64,000 nt of DNA from positions 60,222 through 124,221 of IMG/VR virus record IMGVR_UViG_3300028887_000080. One strand, written 5' to 3'. The notes beneath the pieces were generated by a model. It worked only from the letters and a program-made list of their open reading frames with translations. It was not told the DNA's origin and did no database searches. Below, piece by piece: positions 20,245 through 60,400 of the stretch (positions are counted from its first letter, which is position 1; each line of letters begins with the position of its first letter). Source of the DNA: a virus. Its lineage: Duplodnaviria > Caudoviricetes. The translations under genes and the position numbers were made by a program.

Positions 20245-21948
20245 CTATTCCTTTTGGCAGTCGCAGACGAGTGTTTTCTTTTCCTTTCCGCAGGTCGGGC
20301 ACACATCGCCGTCGCCGCAGGTCGGACACTCACCGTTGACCACTGTCACTCCGTCACCGTCCACAACAACCGTTTCGTGGTTGATGTCGAAGATGAGGTC
20401 GCTTTTGTTCACAACAACCGACGAACCTGTTTTGGGGTCGGTCACGGTGATTGTCGTGTATTCAGGTGCCTCCGCGAATGCTGCGGCGTCGACATACACA
20501 ATGTCGCCTGGGACGAGTGTTCCGACAATGTTTGCCACCTTGACGGGAACGCAGTTGCTGTCGCAGTCTGTTGTGTATGTGTCGGAAAGTGCGATTTCGT
20601 TGTTCTTGATTTCACATTCAAGGAGGTTGAGAGCTTCAACAAGGGAAGTTGTGTCAATGTTTTTCGGTGTCTTTTCGATTTCAGACACGATTTTGCCGCG
20701 TTGCTCTTTCAGGAAGTCGATTCTGTCCTGAATGCTTGCACGTTCTTCCATAATCGCAGCCTTCTTGTCGCCTTCCGCCTTAAGTGCCTCTCGGAGTATG
20801 TTCGTGGCGTCGTAGTTGATGCTTTCCTTGATGTATTTGTTCGCTTCGGTTGCCGACTTGAAGAACTTCATCTCGTTCATATAGGTGTTGTAGTTCACGT
20901 TGTTGACATAGAAACCTTCCTCGACGGAAATCAGGGTGAGGAACACGCCTGCGTTCACGTCGGAACGGAGGTTCACCATATTGTCAAGTTCACTAATCAT
21001 ATCGCGGGACTCGAACATTTTGACAAGCGTGTCGATATGATGCACATTGGTCTTGTTGAACAGACCGCTGATTGAGAGTGTGTCGCGGAGGTCGAGTGAC
21101 GGGAGGTCTGTAAGGTCGTTGTTTCCTATGCAGATGCGGTTCTCGTCAATCTTGTATTCGAGTATTTTCCCGTTAACTCCGTAGTAGTCGAGCGTGTTTT
21201 CCTTTGCGTTGTAGGTCATAAGGGAAAGACCGTTCACCACGTTGTTGTAGCGTTCGTTTGAAACCTTTGTCTCAAGTATTTTTCCGTTAGACAAGGCATA
21301 GTTCTTTCCATAGAGGTTGAACACAATGCTGTTGTTTTCGGAAATGAAAGGAGTGAACATCTTGACCATAGAGCAGCAGTGGTTTTCGACAACCGTCTTG
21401 TTCAGTTTGCTTGTGGTCTTGTATTCCTCGGATTCGATAAGGGCGATGACCTGTTTGGATTCGTTGCACCAAAATTCCGTGTCAACCGCCAATTTTTTGA
21501 GCGGTTCATAGACATCGTCGTTCAGAAGCACGTCATTGACCTGCTTGTAGAGGTCTGCATACATATTGTTGGACATCTTCTTCGCACAGGACTCCATAAC
21601 CTTTGCCCCGACATATCCCCACTTGTCGATTTCCATTGTGGACTTGATGTATGCGCAAAGGGTTTTTACAGGAACGAGGAAACTCCCGTTCAGTGAGTTG
21701 TAGACATTCTCCGCAATCGAATACTTGATTGCAGGGTTCAGTTTTGATTCGTCAATCGGGATTCCAGCGTTTTTTCTTCCAATCATAACCGCAACCTCTG
21801 ACGGGAATTGCTTGATTGCATTCTCGACGATTGCGTACGAACTCATTGCGGAATATGATGCACTGTCGTTTGACGCCGCGAAATCCTTGAGGTCTCTTGC
21901 TGCGCTTGCGAGATTCTCATATAATTGTATCAGATTAAATTTTCTCAT
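20245..21948 (-). CDS. Probable virion/head protein with C-terminal Cys cluster
   Basis: 567 aa, late promoter, coiled coil, CPTCG repeats. Confidence 0.5.
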   Translation of the reverse strand: MRKFNLIQLYENLASAARDLKDFAASNDSASYSAMSSYAIVENAIKQFPSEVAVMIGRKNAGIPIDESKLNPAIKYSIAENVYNSLNGSFLVPVKTLCAYIKSTMEIDKWGYVGAKVMESCAKKMSNNMYADLYKQVNDVLLNDDVYEPLKKLAVDTEFWCNESKQVIALIESEEYKTTSKLNKTVVENHCCSMVKMFTPFISENNSIVFNLYGKNYALSNGKILETKVSNERYNNVVNGLSLMTYNAKENTLDYYGVNGKILEYKIDENRICIGNNDLTDLPSLDLRDTLSISGLFNKTNVHHIDTLVKMFESRDMISELDNMVNLRSDVNAGVFLTLISVEEGFYVNNVNYNTYMNEMKFFKSATEANKYIKESINYDATNILREALKAEGDKKAAIMEERASIQDRIDFLKEQRGKIVSEIEKTPKNIDTTSLVEALNLLECEIKNNEIALSDTYTTDCDSNCVPVKVANIVGTLVPGDIVYVDAAAFAEAPEYTTITVTDPKTGSSVVVNKSDLIFDINHETVVVDGDGVTVVNGECPTCGDGDVCPTCGKEKKTLVCDCQKE

Positions 21949-28755: not shown

Positions 28756-29337
28756 TTACTTTTGCTTTATCAAGCGAACGGATACGTCAGCAGCATAAGG
28801 TTCATCTATGTCGTAAATTGCGCTAAACCCAGTTGATTTGTCATTGTTTCTAAATTCAAATGTATAAAACAAATATGCGTCTTTGCCATTTTTTCTGTAT
28901 TTTTCAAATGTTGTTGTTAAATAAGTTGCAATTTCATCTTTATGAGGTTCATCTGCGGGTAAAAACAGCACGCCTCTAAAATCATTGGTATAAAAATACC
29001 GGCCATATCTTTCTATTATTGTTTTCTCGCCGTTCCATTCTACATAATCAAATGCAAACTTGCCCCAAATAGAATTGCATTTCATAAGTTCTTCAAAGTT
29101 GCTCTTTGTTGGTAAATCTTCTTTTTTATAGCTGTTCATCGCCATATCATAAGTGATTGTTGAACCATAATACGGGTCATATCCTTTTTTTTGTGAGAAC
29201 TCTGGTTCATTTGTATTTTTCCAAAGCACAGTCCCTCCCATATCAACCCATTCCGAGTTGCTTTTAACTATATTTTCCAATTTTGATATTAAATCATATT
29301 GTTTTGACATTTCGTCAATTCTCATTATATGTGCCAT
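28756..29337 (-). CDS. Putative internal protein (MAHIMRIDEM leader) with DUF1566/Fib_succ_major-like C-type lectin fold; low GC
   Basis: WVDMGGTVLW...LPTKSNFEEL...FLPA...SVRLI. Confidence 0.6.
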   Translation of the reverse strand: MAHIMRIDEMSKQYDLISKLENIVKSNSEWVDMGGTVLWKNTNEPEFSQKKGYDPYYGSTITYDMAMNSYKKEDLPTKSNFEELMKCNSIWGKFAFDYVEWNGEKTIIERYGRYFYTNDFRGVLFLPADEPHKDEIATYLTTTFEKYRKNGKDAYLFYTFEFRNNDKSTGFSAIYDIDEPYAADVSVRLIKQK

Positions 29338-30047: not shown

Positions 30048-30124
30048 TGAGGTGTTTTTTTGTTCCATTTTTTTGTTATATTAAATCGGAATTATCCCTT
30101 TTAGTCTTGTAAAAATGTGAGTGA

Positions 30125-30132
30125 TATAAATA
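30125..30132 (+). promoter_or_regulatory. Late promoter TATAAATA inside the element
   Basis: Exact motif 21 nt before the tnpB ATG. Confidence 0.55.
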
Positions 30133-30152
30133 TAGTACAGTATTTCAATCAG

Positions 30153-31364
30153 ATGGAAAGAACGTACACATACAAGTTCAGGTTGTATCCGAACAAGGAG
30201 CAAGAGATTTATCTTGCCAATGTATTTGGATGTTGCAGACTTGTGTACAACCATTTCCTTGATGAGAAGAAACAACAATATGAAGAAACAAAAACAAGTG
30301 ATTCATACAATGTTCAATCAGGTAAACTGACACTACTCCGCAAGACTGATGGGTATGAGTTTCTAAAAAATGTTCCTTTACAAGTTTTGCAGTGTAGTTT
30401 ACGAAATATGCACACTGCATACGAGAATTTTTATAAACACAGAAGTTCCTATCCGAAGTTCAAGAACAGAAGGGACAGACAGTCGTTCAAACTACCACAG
30501 GAGCAATCCTTCAAAATAAAAGATAACAAACTTTACATCCCAAAACTAAAAAGCGGGATTGACATTGTAATGGAACGTGGGATTGTAGGCAAAATTTGCT
30601 TTGTAACCATCTCAAAAAACAAGGCAGGCAGATACCACATAGCAATTACTGTTAAACAGGATTACATACCTTATGGAAAGACCAATCGTTCAGTCGGTCT
30701 TGACCTCGGCATAAAGGATTTCGTCATCACAAGTGACGGAATGAAATACAAGAACCACAGGAGCATAATCAGGACATTAAAACGCAAACTAAAACATAAC
30801 CAAAGGCATCTGTCAAGAAAGATACACGGAAGCAAGAGATACGAAAACCAAGTGTTGAAATGCAACCGAATCTATCAGAAGATAACAGATGTCAAGACCG
30901 ATTACATACACAAAATCACTAATGAACTTGTCAGAAACTATGATGTGATAAAGGTTGAAGATTTGAACATCAGAGGGATGATGAAGAACCACAAGTTGGC
31001 AGAGGCAATATCAGAATGTAATTGGTATCAGTTCATACAGACGCTTGAATACAAGTGCTTGTGGAATGAAAAGGAACTTATAAAGATAGACCGTTTCTAT
31101 CCGTCAAGTCAGATGTGCAGTGAATGTGGTTATGTTGAGAAAAAAGTCAGAAACCTAAATGTAAGGGAATGGACTTGCTGCAACTGCGGTTGTCATCACG
31201 ACAGGGATGTCAATGCGGCAAGGAACATTTTGAAATATAATTCGGTGAGGAACACCGAAAACAGTCGTGGAGTTGTGAAACAACTGAATGAAAAACCTAA
31301 TTTGATTAGTGATTGTTCGGACAACTGTGAAGCGACTATTGAACTTGATAATTTACAAGATTAA
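30153..31364 (+). CDS. tnpB: RNA-guided endonuclease TnpB
   Basis: YKFRLYP HTH, VGLDLG, VEDL, CSECG/CCNCG zinc finger, DRDVNAA. Confidence 0.95.
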   Translation: MERTYTYKFRLYPNKEQEIYLANVFGCCRLVYNHFLDEKKQQYEETKTSDSYNVQSGKLTLLRKTDGYEFLKNVPLQVLQCSLRNMHTAYENFYKHRSSYPKFKNRRDRQSFKLPQEQSFKIKDNKLYIPKLKSGIDIVMERGIVGKICFVTISKNKAGRYHIAITVKQDYIPYGKTNRSVGLDLGIKDFVITSDGMKYKNHRSIIRTLKRKLKHNQRHLSRKIHGSKRYENQVLKCNRIYQKITDVKTDYIHKITNELVRNYDVIKVEDLNIRGMMKNHKLAEAISECNWYQFIQTLEYKCLWNEKELIKIDRFYPSSQMCSECGYVEKKVRNLNVREWTCCNCGCHHDRDVNAARNILKYNSVRNTENSRGVVKQLNEKPNLISDCSDNCEATIELDNLQD

Positions 31365-31397
31365 AAGGGATAATTCCGTATTAAATAAATACGAAGT

Positions 31398-33293
31398 ATG
31401 GACAAATCGGAACTTTACAGCATAATCTTGGAGGACAGGCACATTCAGGAGAATAAATTCAGGATTGAGTATCCTGAATTTTATGCAGAATTGTGCGATA
31501 TTGAATTTCCTGAAGGTTTCACGTTCAGACAGAAACTTTACCATTACTTCAACGATGACATATCGTTTGGGCTTGGTGTATGCGAATGCGGCAATCGCTG
31601 CGAGTTCATCTCGTTGAACGAAGGTTACAAGGCGCATTGTTCAAGGAGTTGTGCCACGAAGTCCTTGTCCGTGAAAGAGAAAAGAAAAAAAACCTGCCTT
31701 GAAAAATATGGGGTCGAGCACGAATCCAAATGCGAGGTGATAAAGGAAAAGAAACGGGAGACCTGCAAGTCGCATTACGGGGTTGAATATCCTATGCAGT
31801 CGGATGAGGTCAGAAAGAAATCAATGGAAACAAACATCGCCAATATGGGTGTTGCGTGTCCGTTTGAATCCGAAACGGTGAAGGAAAAGTCAAGAGAGAC
31901 CTGTATGTCGAAATATGGCGTGGAACACCATTCAAAATCAGAGGAGATAAAAGAAAAGAAACGGAAGACGTCTATGGAACATTATGGCGTGGACTGCCCG
32001 TTGAAATCGGATGAAGTGAAGGGAAGGATAAAGGAAACGGTTAAAGAGAAATACGGCGTGGAATACGTTATGCAGTCGGAGGATGTGAAAGGGCGTGCAA
32101 GGAAAACCAACCTTGAGCGATATGGAACCGACTGTGTCTTGAAACTTGACAGCACAAAGGAGAAAGCAAAAAGAACAAGTATTGAAAAATACGGGGTTGA
32201 ACATCCTATGCAGTCGGAGGATGTGAAACGGAAAGTTTCGTCCACTTGCAAGAAACACTATGGCGTCGATTATCCCATACAGTCGGACATAATAAAGGAA
32301 AGGACAAAGCATACCAACATTGAGAGATATGGTGTTGAATACGCAACGCAATCGGAGGAGTTCAAAAAGAAACTTATTGAAACGAACATTGAAAAATACG
32401 GTGTGCCGTACACCTGTATGCTCGATGGCGTCCGCAGACATTCAAACGATTCCAAACCGAACTTGAATTTCGCCGAACTTCTGTCGGAAAACGGGATTGG
32501 ATACGAGCGCGAGTTTTCTGTCGGGAAATATGTATATGACTTCAAGGTCGGGGACACGCTTGTTGAAATCAACCCGACAATCACGCACAATTCGTTTCTT
32601 GACATATTCGGCGGGAATGCAAAGGACAGGAAGTATCATTTTGATAAAACGTCGGTTGCTGCGGAAAACGGTTACCGTTGCATACACGTTTGGGATTGGG
32701 ACGACTCCGCGAAGATAGTGAATATGCTGAAACCGAAGGAAACGCTATATGCAAGGAAACTGTCGGTGGCGGAGGTGAACCCTGTGGAAGCGGACGTTTT
32801 CCTGTCAAAGCATCATATACAGGGAACCTGCAAGGGTATGTGCGTGTGCGTCGGACTTTATTTGGACGGCGCGATTGTCGAGATTATGGCTTTCGGGAAA
32901 CCGAGATACAACAGGAAATGCGAATGGGAACTTCTGCGCCTGTGCACCGACGGCAACTATATCGTTGTCGGCGGGGCGGAGCGGTTGTTCTCGCACGCAG
33001 TCCGCGAGTACGGTATGCACAGCGTGGTGTCATATTGCGACAATTCAAAGTTCACAGGTGATGTGTATGCAAGACTCGGTTTCAAAAAAACTTCTTTTTC
33101 TTTCGGAAAGCATTGGTTCTGCAAAAAGGACAAACGCAGCCACATAACCGACAATATGCTTCGGCAGCGCGGGTTCGACCAACTGTTCGGAACCGACTAC
33201 GGAAAGGGCACGAGCAACGAAACCCTTATGCTTGAGCGGGGATTCCTTCCTGTGTACGACGCAGGTCAATACACCTTCCTGTGGACGGCATAG
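31398..33293 (+). CDS. Homing-endonuclease-like protein with ~23-aa KYGVE repeats
   Basis: About 11 T..EKYGVE.P.QS repeats, YDFKV...VEIN nuclease region, Hef-like C-terminus. Confidence 0.7.
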   Translation: MDKSELYSIILEDRHIQENKFRIEYPEFYAELCDIEFPEGFTFRQKLYHYFNDDISFGLGVCECGNRCEFISLNEGYKAHCSRSCATKSLSVKEKRKKTCLEKYGVEHESKCEVIKEKKRETCKSHYGVEYPMQSDEVRKKSMETNIANMGVACPFESETVKEKSRETCMSKYGVEHHSKSEEIKEKKRKTSMEHYGVDCPLKSDEVKGRIKETVKEKYGVEYVMQSEDVKGRARKTNLERYGTDCVLKLDSTKEKAKRTSIEKYGVEHPMQSEDVKRKVSSTCKKHYGVDYPIQSDIIKERTKHTNIERYGVEYATQSEEFKKKLIETNIEKYGVPYTCMLDGVRRHSNDSKPNLNFAELLSENGIGYEREFSVGKYVYDFKVGDTLVEINPTITHNSFLDIFGGNAKDRKYHFDKTSVAAENGYRCIHVWDWDDSAKIVNMLKPKETLYARKLSVAEVNPVEADVFLSKHHIQGTCKGMCVCVGLYLDGAIVEIMAFGKPRYNRKCEWELLRLCTDGNYIVVGGAERLFSHAVREYGMHSVVSYCDNSKFTGDVYARLGFKKTSFSFGKHWFCKKDKRSHITDNMLRQRGFDQLFGTDYGKGTSNETLMLERGFLPVYDAGQYTFLWTA

Positions 33294-33350: not shown

Positions 33351-33416
33351 TATTCCAGAGCAATGCCGTTTTTACAATGGCATTCTGGACTGAAAGAAAA
33401 ATATTTTGCGCGAAAT

Positions 33417-35456
33417 ATGAAATCGAAAAACAAAACATTATTGATTGTCGAGCAGGCGATGAGCGACCTCAAAATGTCGAACAGCGGTTCCGATGTCATT
33501 TATCTTGAAGGCATATTCACGGAGTTCAAAGTAAGGAACCGCAATGGTCGCATATACGAGGCGTCGGATTTCATCCCGAAGATGAACGAACTGCTCCCGA
33601 AAATCGAGGGTCACACCCTTCTCGGAGAACTCGACCATCCTGTCAATTTCGACGTTTCCCTAAAGAACGCTTCACACGTCATCGAGAAATTGGAATACGA
33701 TGAAAAGAACGACAGGGTAATCGGAAAAATCCGTCTTTTGAACACAGACGCTGGAAAGCAGGCACAGGCACTTGTCCGTGACGGCATTCCGTTGCACATC
33801 TCGTCCCGTGCCGCAGGTCAAATCAACCCGCAGACGGGTCGTGTGACGCTTGAAAAACTTTTCACATACGACCTTGTAGCCGACCCTGGTTTCGAGAACG
33901 CCGAACTCAAGCGTGTGAACGAAGCATACGGTTTCGGCAATATGGACAACGTTTACATCTATGAATGCGACTATGTTTCAGAAGAGGAAGCAACAGGTAT
34001 AAATAAAGACAATAATAAAGTGAACAATATGAACATCAACGAATCCAAAACGCTCAATGTCGAGGACTTCCAAAAATATACCGAATACATTGCAGGCGTA
34101 ATCGAAAATGTCAAAAAGAGCATCAATGAACTCAAGAACACGATTTCTGTGAACGAGAGTGTAAACGGAAAAATCGGAAAACCGAACGGAACGTTTGCCG
34201 ACACCAAACAACTCGGCGAATATGTCAATTATCTCGCTGAACAACTTCAAAAGGTGAGCGACCACAGCGACTATCTCGCAAATGAACTCGAAAAAAGCAA
34301 CCGCCACAACGACTATCTTGCAGAGAATCTCGAAAACGCAATCAACTACGGAAATTATCTTGCAGAAAAACTCGACGGAAACATCAGCCACAACGATTAT
34401 CTTGCAGAGCAGTTGCAGAAAGTTGCAGACCACAGCGACTACCTCGCAGAGACGGTTCAGAAAACCGCCGACCACAGCGACTACCTCGCAGAACAACTCG
34501 AAAAGGGAATCGCATATTCCGAATATGTTGCAGAAAAAGTGGCGACAACGGCGGATTATGCCGACTATCTTGCCGAAAATGTGGAAAAGAGTATGAATTA
34601 CAGCGAATATCTTGCGGAGGAATTGCAGAAAACCGCCGACCACAGCGACTACCTCGCAGAACAACTCGAACGCAACTATGCACACAACGACTATCTCGCA
34701 GAGAAACTCAACGAGAATTATGCACACAACGACTATCTCGCAGAGAAACTCAACGAGAATTTCGACAGAACCGACAGCATTGTGGAAAGTATGCAGCAGA
34801 ACGGAATGCTTGTTGTGGAAAACAAAGCTGCATTGCAGGGAGGCGCAATCAATGAAAGCAGCGATTCTTTTGCAGCAAACAAGTCTGTGGAAGAAACACG
34901 CAATGCGGCAGCACAAATCCGCAAGGGAATCAAATCGAACGATGAATACAAATCGTCAATCACTGAAAAAATCGACGCGCTTATCAACAAGCACAGCGGT
35001 CAGGTGAAACCCGACAATTTCCTCAACTTCCTCTCCGAAGGACGCAGAAACGAGTTCGAGTCGCTTGACGAAAACACAAAAGCCGTAATCACCGTCGCTA
35101 TGAACACGGCAAATGTCGGTAACGAAGAACAGGCAAATGTTGTGTGGAAGAGCGTCTATGAGTCAAAGAAAGGTCTTGACCTTGTCGAGAATATGCCAGC
35201 TGTCTACCGTGACAAATGGAATGGGCTTTCAGACAAGAGAAAACAGGAAATCCTGAACGAGTCCAAATTCTACAAAATCAACACGACCAACGAAATCGAA
35301 TACTTCTGGTCAACCCGCGACCTCCGCGACAACACAATGGTTGTGGAACGCGTCGACACCGATTCGGCAAGAATGTGGTCGGAAGACAAAAAGCAGCAGG
35401 ATGACCGTATCAGCAGCATCCTCGGACGCACAAAGAGAGGTATCTTGGGTTTCTAA
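33417..35456 (+). CDS. Prohead core protease (T4 gp21-like) fused to scaffold-like repeat domain
   Basis: NRNGRIY, LGELDHP, SHVI, ISSRAAG, TYDLVADPG. Confidence 0.9.
   Translation: MKSKNKTLLIVEQAMSDLKMSNSGSDVIYLEGIFTEFKVRNRNGRIYEASDFIPKMNELLPKIEGHTLLGELDHPVNFDVSLKNASHVIEKLEYDEKNDRVIGKIRLLNTDAGKQAQALVRDGIPLHISSRAAGQINPQTGRVTLEKLFTYDLVADPGFENAELKRVNEAYGFGNMDNVYIYECDYVSEEEATGINKDNNKVNNMNINESKTLNVEDFQKYTEYIAGVIENVKKSINELKNTISVNESVNGKIGKPNGTFADTKQLGEYVNYLAEQLQKVSDHSDYLANELEKSNRHNDYLAENLENAINYGNYLAEKLDGNISHNDYLAEQLQKVADHSDYLAETVQKTADHSDYLAEQLEKGIAYSEYVAEKVATTADYADYLAENVEKSMNYSEYLAEELQKTADHSDYLAEQLERNYAHNDYLAEKLNENYAHNDYLAEKLNENFDRTDSIVESMQQNGMLVVENKAALQGGAINESSDSFAANKSVEETRNAAAQIRKGIKSNDEYKSSITEKIDALINKHSGQVKPDNFLNFLSEGRRNEFESLDENTKAVITVAMNTANVGNEEQANVVWKSVYESKKGLDLVENMPAVYRDKWNGLSDKRKQEILNESKFYKINTTNEIEYFWSTRDLRDNTMVVERVDTDSARMWSEDKKQQDDRISSILGRTKRGILGF
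34218..34757 (+). repeat. 13 x 42-bp (14-aa) YLAE coding repeats
   Basis: e.g. DHSDYLAEQLQKVA. Confidence 0.9.
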
Positions 35457-38192: not shown

Positions 38193-38795
38193 ATGAAAAT
38201 ACTGAAAATAGACGAGATGTTTTCAACACATCGCATAAACGAAGGCGCTGGCGCAGGATACAATGTTATGTTCGGCGACCTTGAAATCGACGTGAACACA
38301 ATAGAAATCACAGACCCCTTGAAAGACAGTGACGGAAACGGTTATTTTGAATGGAAAGCGAAGTTGAAACCGTGCAATATGAAGGAATGGGCGACTTCAA
38401 GTTATTATGACGGAACAGACAGCAATTCATCACATATTGAATTTGACTTCGACATAAAAGGAGGTGAAGTGCGGGGATGGATGGAAACATCTGAATTTCT
38501 CGGCGAAAATGGAAAATTCAACAAATCGTATGCGTTGAATTTTCTCAAGGAAATGGACGGGGTTGGATTTTCACTGTCGGATATGATTGGTGGTGGATGG
38601 GTGCATACAAACCTGTCCAACCCGATAGAAATCGGAAGCGGCAACTATGTTGAAGAGGGCAAGGTTCTTGAAAGCGACTATAGGAAGTCGCACGGATGGG
38701 ACAAGGACGAGAATGAATACGGCATATACTATGCGAAGATAGACGCAAAGGAATTTGCAGACTTCGTGAACGATTTTTACAAAAATGTTCCGTGA
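38193..38795 (+). CDS. Putative internal protein (MKILKIDEMF..RINE leader)
   Basis: ATG at 38193; stop supplied by the IS left end. Confidence 0.65.
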   Translation: MKILKIDEMFSTHRINEGAGAGYNVMFGDLEIDVNTIEITDPLKDSDGNGYFEWKAKLKPCNMKEWATSSYYDGTDSNSSHIEFDFDIKGGEVRGWMETSEFLGENGKFNKSYALNFLKEMDGVGFSLSDMIGGGWVHTNLSNPIEIGSGNYVEEGKVLESDYRKSHGWDKDENEYGIYYAKIDAKEFADFVNDFYKNVP

Positions 38796-38845
38796 AAGAT
38801 TCCACCTTTCAAGGTGGATATGAAACGGAACAAACTATTTTTCAT

Positions 38846-38853
38846 TATAAATA
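38846..38853 (+). promoter_or_regulatory. Late promoter TATAAATA inside the element
   Basis: Exact motif 19 nt before the TTG start. Confidence 0.5.
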
Positions 38854-38871
38854 TAACAAAAAACAATAATT

Positions 38872-40176
38872 TTGACATCAGAAGATAGAATTATAAAAAA
38901 TAGTTGCATTTCAGAAACGAAGCGTGCAACCGTTTCAAGACACCTTGGAATGGACTGCAAGACTTTTGATGTCAAAATCCAAGAGAACTCGTTGAACAAC
39001 AAACAAAAGGAAGCGTTGGAACGCATATTCCTTGAACAGAAGTGGTACAAGAATTATATCATAAATTGGTCTAACCAATCCGACCAAAACAAACTGTCGA
39101 AGTTCGACACAAAATTGACTTCCATAACCAAGAAGGACAAGGATATGAATGATGTTGATGTGAAAATCCAATACCTTTCCGCACAGTCAAGACAATGTTT
39201 GTTGTCAAGGATGCTTGCAAATGCAAAATCAATCAAAACATTATCGAACAAAGGATTCCAAAAAGGCGGACATTTGAAATTCTCAAAAGAGGAAACAATC
39301 ATTGACTTGAAACAATATGGAACAAGTCACAAGATTGTCTCAAACAAAAAGGTCAAGGTTGCAGGAATCAAAAAAGCATTGGTTGTCAACGGGTTGAAGC
39401 AATTCACAAGCATACAAGGGATTGAATATGCGAATGCAAGACTGTTGAAACGTGCAAGCGGATATTATATCCAATTTGTATGCTATGTTCCAAAGGAAAC
39501 CAAGCAATATATAAACCAAACAATAGGTGTTGACTTCGGTTGCGAGACAACATTCACATTGTCAAACGGTGAGAAGGTACAAGCGTCAGTTCAAGAAAGC
39601 GACAGACTTAAAAGACTTCAAAGAAAGTTGAATAAGAAAATAAAAGGGTCAAAGAACTGGTGCAAGTGCAAATCACAACTGAACAAGGAACACGAAAAAC
39701 TGACAAACAAGAAAAATGATTTGACAAACAAAGTTGTTTACAAACTTACTGAATATGAAACAGTTGTAATCCAAGACGAGCAGATTGCAAGGTGGCATAA
39801 AAGCGGTCACGGAAAGAAGGTTCAGCATTCAATTCTTGGAAGAGTCAAATCAAAACTGAAGAGCAAACCAAACGTAGTTGTCTTGGACAAATATGTTCCA
39901 ACGACAAAGGTCTGCACAAAATGCGGATGCTGTCACGATGAACTGAAAGTCTATGACAGAACATTCAAATGCGATTGTGGTGTTGAAATGGACAGAGACG
40001 TTCACGCAGCACAGAATATGGTTTGGTTCTATAAGAATAATGTAGGCACTTTGTGCCACAATGTAGGTGTGGGGCGCACCGAATCAAAGCGTGTGGAGAT
40101 GCGGGAAAAGATTTTGGATGCTATAAGGCATTCAAAGCAATCAGCATCGTTGAATCACGAAGCCGACACCCTTTAG
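38872..40176 (+). CDS. tnpB: TnpB-like nuclease (RuvC-II reads IQDE)
   Basis: IGVDFG, CTKCG/CDCG, DRDVHAA. Confidence 0.85.
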   Translation: MTSEDRIIKNSCISETKRATVSRHLGMDCKTFDVKIQENSLNNKQKEALERIFLEQKWYKNYIINWSNQSDQNKLSKFDTKLTSITKKDKDMNDVDVKIQYLSAQSRQCLLSRMLANAKSIKTLSNKGFQKGGHLKFSKEETIIDLKQYGTSHKIVSNKKVKVAGIKKALVVNGLKQFTSIQGIEYANARLLKRASGYYIQFVCYVPKETKQYINQTIGVDFGCETTFTLSNGEKVQASVQESDRLKRLQRKLNKKIKGSKNWCKCKSQLNKEHEKLTNKKNDLTNKVVYKLTEYETVVIQDEQIARWHKSGHGKKVQHSILGRVKSKLKSKPNVVVLDKYVPTTKVCTKCGCCHDELKVYDRTFKCDCGVEMDRDVHAAQNMVWFYKNNVGTLCHNVGVGRTESKRVEMREKILDAIRHSKQSASLNHEADTL

Positions 40177-40221
40177 GGTGGCGGTAGTTCACAAAAATCC
40201 TGAAGAATATTATGAAATATA

Positions 40222-59951: not shown

Positions 59952-60400
59952 ACTTTTTCTATTATGTCCAAAAAATAAAGACCTCGGAATTTCCGAAGTT
60001 GGCAAATGAACGACGCGTTTGAAATGATGTCGGCGTCTCTCTGCGGGTCTGTCTGACGATACTGATATTCACATTCAATCACGGCGAAATCGCCCTCCGA
60101 CCGAGCACCTGTTATCCTGAAGGTGCGGGACTCAAGTTCATCCAACCTGCTTTTAGACCTGTAGCAGGGGTGCTGCCTCATAATAGTTATGAACGCACCG
60201 TCACCTGCGGCGGAATTTATGGTTTCGGCGGCAATGTCGGCGCCGATTGCTTTGCGCGAACTGTTTTCGTCAAAGCACCTGATTGGACATTTAACTGCGA
60301 ACTCGTATATGTTTGAACGAACGCCCGCGCCGCAGTACCAAACCGACACATTGTTCGCTCCGAGCACATCGCTTTTAATCCTGCTGTCTGTTATTCTCAT
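59948..60400 (-). CDS. Tag-array protein (MRITDSR)
   Basis: VKCP / DPQRDA shared with 60842-61288. Confidence 0.7.
   Translation of the reverse strand: MRITDSRIKSDVLGANNVSVWYCGAGVRSNIYEFAVKCPIRCFDENSSRKAIGADIAAETINSAAGDGAFITIMRQHPCYRSKSRLDELESRTFRITGARSEGDFAVIECEYQYRQTDPQRDADIISNASFICQLRKFRGLYFLDIIEKV

Follow-up and report, generated by a model that had tools for sequence, protein, structure and literature searches.

A tnpB gene and the scaffold of its guide RNA lie inside a small non-autonomous transposon of the IS1595 family in a 64,000-nt stretch of viral DNA (IMG/VR record IMGVR_UViG_3300028887_000080, positions 60,222 to 124,221; hereafter the window, whose own numbering is used unless another record is named), and this arrangement is real, mobile and conserved. 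The whole element occupies 30087-31378 (1,292 bp), with an intact tnpB as its only gene, and the window forms the right half of a 124-kb record for which completeness is estimated at 39%. Only the protein, not the element, is of the IS200/IS605 type.

A tnpB gene between IS1595-type ends

The element is bounded by terminal inverted repeats (TIRs) of 27 nt and of IS1595-family type, the left one at 30087-30113 (plus strand) and the right one at 31352-31378 (minus strand, one mismatch to the left). They follow the pattern CGGAATTATCCCTTTTA(G/A)TCTTGTAAA, are complementary to each other at 26 of 27 positions, and are flanked by an exact 8-bp direct repeat, the target-site duplication TATTAAAT, at 30079-30086 and 31379-31386, beyond both copies of which identity stops. 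The inverted-repeat pattern is confined to these two sites of the window and gave zero matches in shuffled sequences. The tnpB gene (30153-31364, plus strand, 403 aa) begins about 40 nt from the left repeat, without a left-end hairpin, and we placed its start at the ATG at 30153 because the homologues begin MER(T/V)YTYKF; its stop codon (31362-31364) falls inside the right repeat and its last 40 or so codons overlap the omegaRNA region. A T4-like late-promoter box, TATAAATA, at 30125-30132 on the plus strand, 21 nt upstream of this ATG, is the putative promoter. The product matches HTH_OrfB_IS605 (PF12323), OrfB_IS605 (PF01385) and Cas12f1-like_TNB (PF07282) in Pfam. It also matches the NCBIfam models guided_TnpB (NF040570, 321.9 bits, cut-off 100) and NF038281, the IS200/IS605 type, where its 401.6 bits lie just below the cut-off of 425. 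The RuvC residues D184, E269 and D352 are invariant throughout its clade. No IS605-type right end (...GGTAGTTCAC) was found at the element, whereas one is present at the second tnpB of the window (38787-40192). The repeats, the sole cargo with its RuvC D/E/D residues intact and the lack of an IS605-type right end had all been described, at these same positions, in a first-pass annotation of the window, and all hold.

The first 23 nt of the left repeat are those found around an IS1595 transposase in G001, the 388-kb record of a related phage. That autonomous copy (156819-160206 of G001; 3,388 bp) has identical 23-nt ends and its own duplication, ATTTTAAA, and carries three passenger open reading frames (ORFs) besides the transposase gene. 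The transposase (319 aa; L031 1081-2037) matches NF033547, 'IS1595 family transposase', with 181.5 bits (cut-off 75) and DDE_Tnp_IS1595 (PF12762) with 115-117 / 114.7 bits; its zinc ribbon (PF12760) scored 24.6 bits against a cut-off of 25.4, with the CxxC...CxxC motif visible. Contigs of Bacteroidales metagenome-assembled genomes (MAGs; species-representative genomes) have the same ends around transposases 57-97% identical to that of G001, and these elements also show 8-bp duplications. The exact 17-nt end motif is present in 26 stretches in IMG/VR, mostly from jumbo-phage records, among which the paired elements measure 98 bp to 3.4 kb, and 8-bp duplications were seen at more than 15 other insertions of the family. 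One sibling lies in the same phage record as the window but outside it (20569-21601 of the record; G000:C1, L001 1501-2533), with identical ends, its own duplication TATTTTTT, and a cargo gene whose 298-aa product contains a phosphoribosyltransferase domain (PF00156, 37 bits). The first-pass annotation had read the ends as IS1595-like, tnpB as captured by a non-autonomous DDE element, and other TIR-bounded copies as the thing to look for. Support on each count comes from the cognate transposase, which identical ends enclose both in a related phage and on Bacteroidales contigs, and from the many copies in jumbo-phage and Bacteroidales records that carry duplications of their own.

The IS1595 family, with terminal inverted repeats of about 20-40 bp, includes passenger-carrying 'transporter IS' forms and has eukaryotic relatives, Merlin; ends of the form CGGnnTT (here CGGAATT) would suggest its ISNha5 group. 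Members of the family usually have 8-bp duplications (PMC8101967), and forms with passengers are on record (PMC11891212). The elements described here share with the family the inverted ends of about 27 nt, the 8-bp duplications, the transposase with a DDE_Tnp_IS1595 domain and, marginally, a zinc ribbon, and the habit of carrying passengers. The window copy differs in lacking a transposase and in carrying, as passenger, an RNA-guided nuclease along with the guide RNA.

A protein search recovered a large clade of TnpBs, some 96 in number, at 56% identity or more. All of its readable contexts are bounded by the same or co-diverged ends (CGGAATYATCYAYTTTAGGCTTG in the 56-58% members), bar a few decayed copies (L038, L434), whereas inverted repeats are absent from relatives that share no more than 50% identity, and these end on the right with a hairpin, then GGTAGTTCAC and then unrelated flank. 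At least 11 independent insertions of TnpB or guide-RNA-only elements each have their own 8-bp duplication. Those of tnpB elements that are clean read AGTGATTT, AAACTTAT, AAAGAAAT, AACTAAAA, AACAAATA, AACTATGT and AATAGATA, and since they stand at different sites, the tnpB-bearing unit has transposed repeatedly. In a maximum-likelihood tree, in which 6 of the 16 rows are labelled by clade position rather than by inspection of their ends, all TIR-bounded TnpBs fall into a single clade (100/100), which branches from within the canonical IS605-type TnpBs. Within this clade the ratio of nonsynonymous to synonymous substitution (dN/dS) is 0.05-0.10 and synonymous divergence runs from 0.6 to saturation, with the ends still almost identical. 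The association of TnpB with these ends is thus old, single and maintained, and the lineage is under strong purifying selection. One member, at 937-2308 of L117, has a tandem right end: directly after the tnpB element come 88 bp in which the 3' end of the scaffold and the right repeat are present once more; no matching duplication was found for this tandem end.

An empty allele was found in a 3,958-bp contig of a relative (L437), where it was located through a homologue 90% identical to the DUF7487 protein encoded at 31398 of the window. The same two genes flank the site, this one and that for a 184-aa protein on the minus strand, and they lie 112 nt apart, which is the window spacer less the element and less one duplication (1412 - 1292 - 8). 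The contig reads ...TTTTTTTGTTA TATTCTAT AAATACG..., with a single copy of the octamer, and the window minus the element reads ...TTTTTTTGTTA TATTAAAT AAATACG...; the empty allele sought in the first-pass annotation therefore exists, and has this reading where ...TTGTTATATTAAATAAATACG... had been predicted. The further suggestion of that annotation, that the insertion fell into a promoter-like motif, fits the fact that the target in L437 overlaps a perfect TATAAATA box ahead of the DUF7487 gene. Positions 764-772 of L437, 5 nt past the target octamer, read CGGAATTAT, the same as the first 9 nt of the transposon end, where the occupied window has CGAAGTAT; this is either chance or a sign that the transposase is attracted to end-like sequence.

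Other routes to an empty site gave none. Among relatives of the upstream 184-aa gene (78-86% identity) the spacer is hypervariable and filled otherwise, and the DUF7487 relatives within IMG/VR, all 47% identical or less, did not lead to one. The joined flanks of 22 elements, compared by BLAST with all fetched DNA, had no spanning match; the G001 element with its flanks, compared in the same way with four related phage records, gave matches to the element and a single weak match to a flank. Megablast of the locus against GenBank phages gave no match. Two contigs, L257 and L264, had been considered as sharing an 81-aa neighbour gene and were rejected, the proteins being unrelated.

Guide-RNA scaffold and predicted target

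The omegaRNA-like scaffold lies on the plus strand at 31233-31378 (start at 31233 or 31241) and comprises a 5' stem-loop, a long-range helix (GTCGT with GCGAC) around inner hairpins, and a terminal hairpin. The right repeat supplies the 3' arm of that hairpin with its inner part, while its outer 11 nt, GGATAATTCCG, are left as a single-stranded tail. An omegaRNA-like 3' region had been noted before and is indeed present; the end then given to it, at about 31345, falls short, as the region runs through the right repeat to 31378. In the last 146 nt of 18 copies, folded with RNAalifold and examined by pair counts, we found 37 pairs with 95% of cells paired, of which 19 have compensatory changes on both sides; none of 500 shuffles did as well, and slid registers were worse. 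The window scaffold alone folds better than its own shuffles (z = -3.4), the loop of the terminal hairpin accounts for the differences in length between copies (5-22 nt), and an Rfam scan of the scaffold region returned no family match.

The canonical relatives have the same layout, namely a hairpin followed by GG(G)TAGTTCAC and next by the guide, and in an alignment the arms of the long-range helix covary in them too. A covariance model built from the TIR-bounded clade (R1 scores 153.7 bits on 31233-31378 of the window) matches their 3' regions with 34-42 bits. The 11-nt tail of the model, GGAUAAUUCCG, aligns to the canonical right end GGGUAGUUCAC exactly at the boundary of the insertion sequence in L043 and to within 1 nt of it in L059, these being the two of the four canonical relatives inspected in which the tail falls on GGGTAGTTCAC. 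Given this placement, we think it most likely that the scaffold takes in the whole of the repeat and that the 8 duplicated bp of the target form the start of the guide. The outer 11-12 nt of the right repeat, GGGATAATTCCG, share 8 of 11 positions with GGGTAGTTCAC if one gap is allowed, and the capture may have succeeded because the IS1595 end already resembled the tail of the ancestral omegaRNA.

If transcription passes through the right repeat, the predicted guide segment would be TATTAAATAAATACGAAGTA, at 31379-31398 on the plus strand; no terminator-like site was found on this strand between the 3' end of tnpB and the flank. We rejected the alternative of a guide that consists of the repeat's outer 16 nt, as it would target every copy of the family, itself included. 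When the elements are oriented by their omegaRNA, TA directly precedes the left duplication in each of the nine automatically detected elements that carry TnpB or omegaRNA only, and does so (as WTA) in 11 of 11 once L264 and L433, whose degenerate left ends were read by eye, are added. The background for TA is 27% (n=77, comprising the right-end side and elements without tnpB), with CA about equally common there, and the oriented TA gives a binomial p of 8e-6 and a Fisher value of 0.0045 against the right-end side. A symmetric transposase is blind to the orientation of its cargo, and the TA asymmetry therefore points to selection after insertion. TA or WTA is thus a candidate target-adjacent motif (TAM) for a guide that starts at the duplication; in the window the candidate is TTA at 30076-30078 (minimum TA, 30077-30078; plus strand), directly 5' of the left duplication. 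The left ends of the canonical relatives could not be placed from an alignment of their 5' flanks, and a TAM was not readable there.

Several elements consist of little more than the scaffold. Those of about 325 bp (L021 6894-7220, L301 616-944 and L306 801-1122) keep both ends and the whole scaffold, without tnpB, covariance-model scores for omega-only elements being 115-172 bits, and fragments of the kind occur in L302, L303, L307 and L308. Several such elements are found in G002, a complete 413-kb phage without a TnpB of the clade (best match 42% identical), and they are either relics or users of a TnpB supplied in trans. In L041, L117, L170, L257, L021 and L306 the terminal-hairpin loop has an insertion of 9-11 nt reading TTATAAATAAT, which creates an extra TATAAATA late-promoter box facing outward over the right end; this box could drive the gene downstream of the insertion.

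Proposed mechanism and alternatives

We think it rather probable that the element is a derivative of an IS1595 lineage, resident in Bacteroidales of rumen and hindgut and in their jumbo phages, which kept the 27-nt ends, exchanged its transposase for TnpB and omegaRNA, and persists by mobilisation in trans together with homing. A transposase from an autonomous copy in the same phage, a co-infecting phage or the host would move the element to AT-rich sites. Late in infection, tnpB would be transcribed from the element's own TATAAATA box with read-through of the right repeat, and the transcript would be processed to an omegaRNA with its scaffold ending at the outer end of that repeat and a guide that takes in the 8-bp duplication and 8-12 nt of the adjoining flank. 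TnpB would then cut genomes with an uninterrupted site preceded by (W)TA, and the break would be repaired from an element-bearing copy in the recombinogenic T4-like replication pool, so that the element would be retained after excision and would spread to co-infecting relatives, as for IS605 TnpB. TnpB acting in trans could also serve deletion derivatives that retain only the guide RNA. TnpB-mediated homing of IS605-type elements was reportedly described by Meers et al. in 2023. The mechanism is plausible, its RNA and cleavage steps being predictions from sequence. With rather more hesitation we suggest that the DDE transposase and TnpB may be coupled through the duplication itself, the 8 bp serving as guide start, the repeat as scaffold end, and a liking of the transposase for YA supplying the TA beforehand. 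If so, each rightly oriented insertion would be born with a homing guide against its own empty site, and a cut-and-paste transposon and its guide-RNA-only derivatives could thereby spread among co-infecting jumbo phages.

Several observations weigh against this account. No transposase gene was found in the 124-kb record (39% complete), so that the window copy relies on a transposase in trans, and no element with both tnpB and a transposase was found. The TA signal comes from 11 sites only, and the transposase seems to favour YA beside its target, which raises the TA background. The register of the covariance model is right in just two of the four canonical relatives inspected, the terminal hairpin is weak in some copies (L037 and the window), and the stretch from the conserved ...ATTGAAC to the repeat varies by 5-22 nt among copies, more than one would normally expect within a scaffold, although a hairpin loop might tolerate it. 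The read-through guide proposed in the first-pass annotation receives indirect support from the RNA covariation, the match to canonical right ends and the oriented TA. At guide positions 5-6, the sequence of L437, the sole empty allele found, does not agree with the predicted target. This allele keeps GTTA and yet would probably escape cleavage, which, as a single example, we offer as a remark and not as evidence. In addition, the benefit of restorative homing has been questioned for cut-and-paste DDE elements (PMC13565253).

The variable stretch after ATTGAAC could also mean that the scaffold ends at ...GCGACTATTGAAC, before the repeat, in which case the guide would be a fixed internal spacer plus the repeat, and TnpB either a relic or directed at a fixed, unrelated target. 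The 5-22 nt indels there, in copies that are otherwise conserved, do resemble a freely evolving guide, and TATTGAAC is similar to the canonical tail TAGTTCAC. However, the indels are located in a hairpin loop, and the segment pairs with the inner repeat in a helix (helix 7) in which pairing persists through changes on both sides (5 of 7 pairs). A fixed guide would moreover start with bases absent from the siblings, and so be without an evident target, and it would leave unexplained both the oriented TA and a dN/dS of 0.05-0.10 across many sites; we regard such an early end as unlikely. Just as unlikely, in our judgement, is a TnpB that works in the same way but mainly serves the phage by cutting related competitor phages without the insertion, the ends being used for occasional relocation only. 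Free-standing homing endonucleases of T-even phages act by such marker exclusion, the element adjoins, in a hypervariable region, the DUF7487 gene, for which sources give the name possible homing endonuclease, several other TnpBs are encoded in these phages, and expression is apparently from a late promoter. The molecular mechanism would nevertheless be that of homing, so sequence alone cannot separate the two, and repeated transposition to many sites with clean duplications amounts to ongoing spread at the level of the element.

It is very unlikely that an IS605/IS1341-type tnpB element became nested by accident in an unrelated miniature inverted-repeat element, even though the protein, which scores just under the cut-off of NF038281, is of the IS200/IS605 type. 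The 40 nt or so from the left repeat to the ATG hold no left-end hairpin, the right-end hairpin and tail consist of the repeat itself, the arrangement with co-diverged ends holds in all clade members down to 56% identity, and no clade copy was found outside such ends save the decayed L038 and L434. IS605 ends inside a miniature element, which the first-pass annotation had named as the finding that would overturn its view, were not seen at any homologous tnpB locus examined. A chance origin of the inverted and direct repeats in AT-rich intergenic DNA, for which nothing but the AT-richness of the flanks speaks, is already refuted by the zero matches in shuffles, the dozens of copies elsewhere and the empty site.

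The first-pass annotation had assumed that TIR-borne TnpB is mainly a trait of eukaryotic Fanzors. This does not stand, as prokaryotic DDE cases were reported in 2023, and the novelty of the element is smaller than was then supposed: Altae-Tran et al. tied six TnpB branches (DDE-1 to DDE-6) to DDE transposases, with inverted terminal repeats and the tnpB 3' end at most 250 bp from the transposon end, and found some solo TnpBs with the same ends as transposase-bearing copies, implying mobilisation in trans (PMC10691335). A 2026 review names the families involved as ISL2, IS630 and IS1031 (PMC13565253). IS1595 is not named in the main texts of these two papers, and the clade may yet overlap with one of DDE-1 to DDE-5; a full-text literature search for TnpB with IS1595 returned nothing relevant. 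The window element is like the DDE-associated TnpBs (PMC10691335) in that tnpB lies between inverted repeats shared with a DDE transposase and has its 3' end near the transposon end. It is unlike them in its IS1595 transposase family, in its Bacteroidales jumbo-phage carriers, in having the last omegaRNA hairpin and tail formed from the repeat, and in the proposed use of the 8-bp duplication as the first 8 nt of the guide.

With the tnpB-only, IS1341-type elements of IS200/IS605 (e.g. ISDra2 derivatives) it shares the TnpB family and an omegaRNA overlapping the 3' end of tnpB, and presumably a flank-derived guide and cleavage of the empty site. The Y1 transposase, the asymmetric hairpin ends and the 4-5-nt target doubling as TAM were not seen here, and IS605 elements have neither the inverted ends nor the duplications that the window element has. 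The eukaryotic Fanzor1 proteins, found in Mariner/Tc1, hAT and other DDE transposons, are likewise TnpB homologues carried as cargo by transposons with TIRs that make duplications. The window element differs from them in its prokaryotic or viral setting, its typical compact TnpB and a proposed TAM just outside the duplication, the 5' duplication having been proposed as part of the TAM in Fanzor1 (PMC13565253).

The present case adds a transposase of the IS1595 family, carriage by jumbo phages, a scaffold fused with the repeat, a duplication that is proposed to begin the guide, TA as candidate TAM, and derivatives with the guide RNA only. Bacterial TnpB has been studied almost wholly in IS605 and IS607 elements, where scarless excision explains the benefit of a homing nuclease. 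Whether, and in what way, the OMEGA module serves transposons that have inverted repeats and make duplications has been an open question (PMC13565253), and the lineage offers a compact natural test case for it, with many insertions, a matching transposase, an empty allele, guide-RNA-only derivatives and a scaffold whose 3' end is the transposon end. In its phage setting the module may act as a programmable homing endonuclease, and a TnpB of about 400 aa with a possibly very short TAM (TA) would be of interest for genome editing.

The phage carrier and its other mobile elements

The carrier is probably a T4-like jumbo phage of rumen or hindgut Bacteroidales, to judge from gene content, promoters and the provenance of its relatives. 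The related phage records measure 363-413 kb and are complete or almost so. A T4-type prohead core protease is encoded in the window at 33363-35456, and there are 20 copies of the T4 late-promoter box TATAAATA in the window, where 0.9 would be expected, among other places upstream of the prohead protease gene and of the second tnpB. Samples of the close relatives are gut metagenomes of cattle (bovine), buffalo, sheep, yak and horse, and a Bacteroidales host is suggested because the same transposon ends occur in Bacteroidales MAG contigs. The G+C content of the family elements is 27-38%, against 45-49% in the phage records.

The second tnpB of the window (38787-40192) encodes a protein 26% identical to the TIR-bounded TnpB and has canonical ends, the left being a hairpin after ...AAAT and the right a hairpin with GCGGTAGTTCAC; its TATAAATA box is at 38846-38853. 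There are five tnpB genes in G001 and four in G003. Downstream of the element, the neighbouring gene at 31398-33293 encodes the 631-aa DUF7487 protein, with four repeats, whose relatives are labelled 'possible homing endonuclease' or 'endonuclease-like protein' by their sources. This gene is not at the homologous position in the relative L268 and is probably itself mobile; more distant relatives are also without it, and the region is therefore a hot spot for selfish DNA. In G001, insertions are locally concentrated at 239110-242971 (L006, L032), a hot spot where three to four elements of the IS1595-type family lie within 4 kb.

The leader M-x-HI(K/R)R(I/L/V)NEM stands at the start of ORFs that sibling elements carry as cargo and of a passenger in the autonomous copy (L005 9348-10262; L006 8579-9070, minus strand; L009 3129-3488; L025 618-1484, minus strand), and it is also found on many phage genes of the window, e.g. 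that at 28756-29337 on the minus strand. Its terminal I/L/V-x-E is the cleavage motif of T4-type prohead proteases, and the transposon family may thus shuttle late-expressed, capsid-packaged (injected) proteins between phages.

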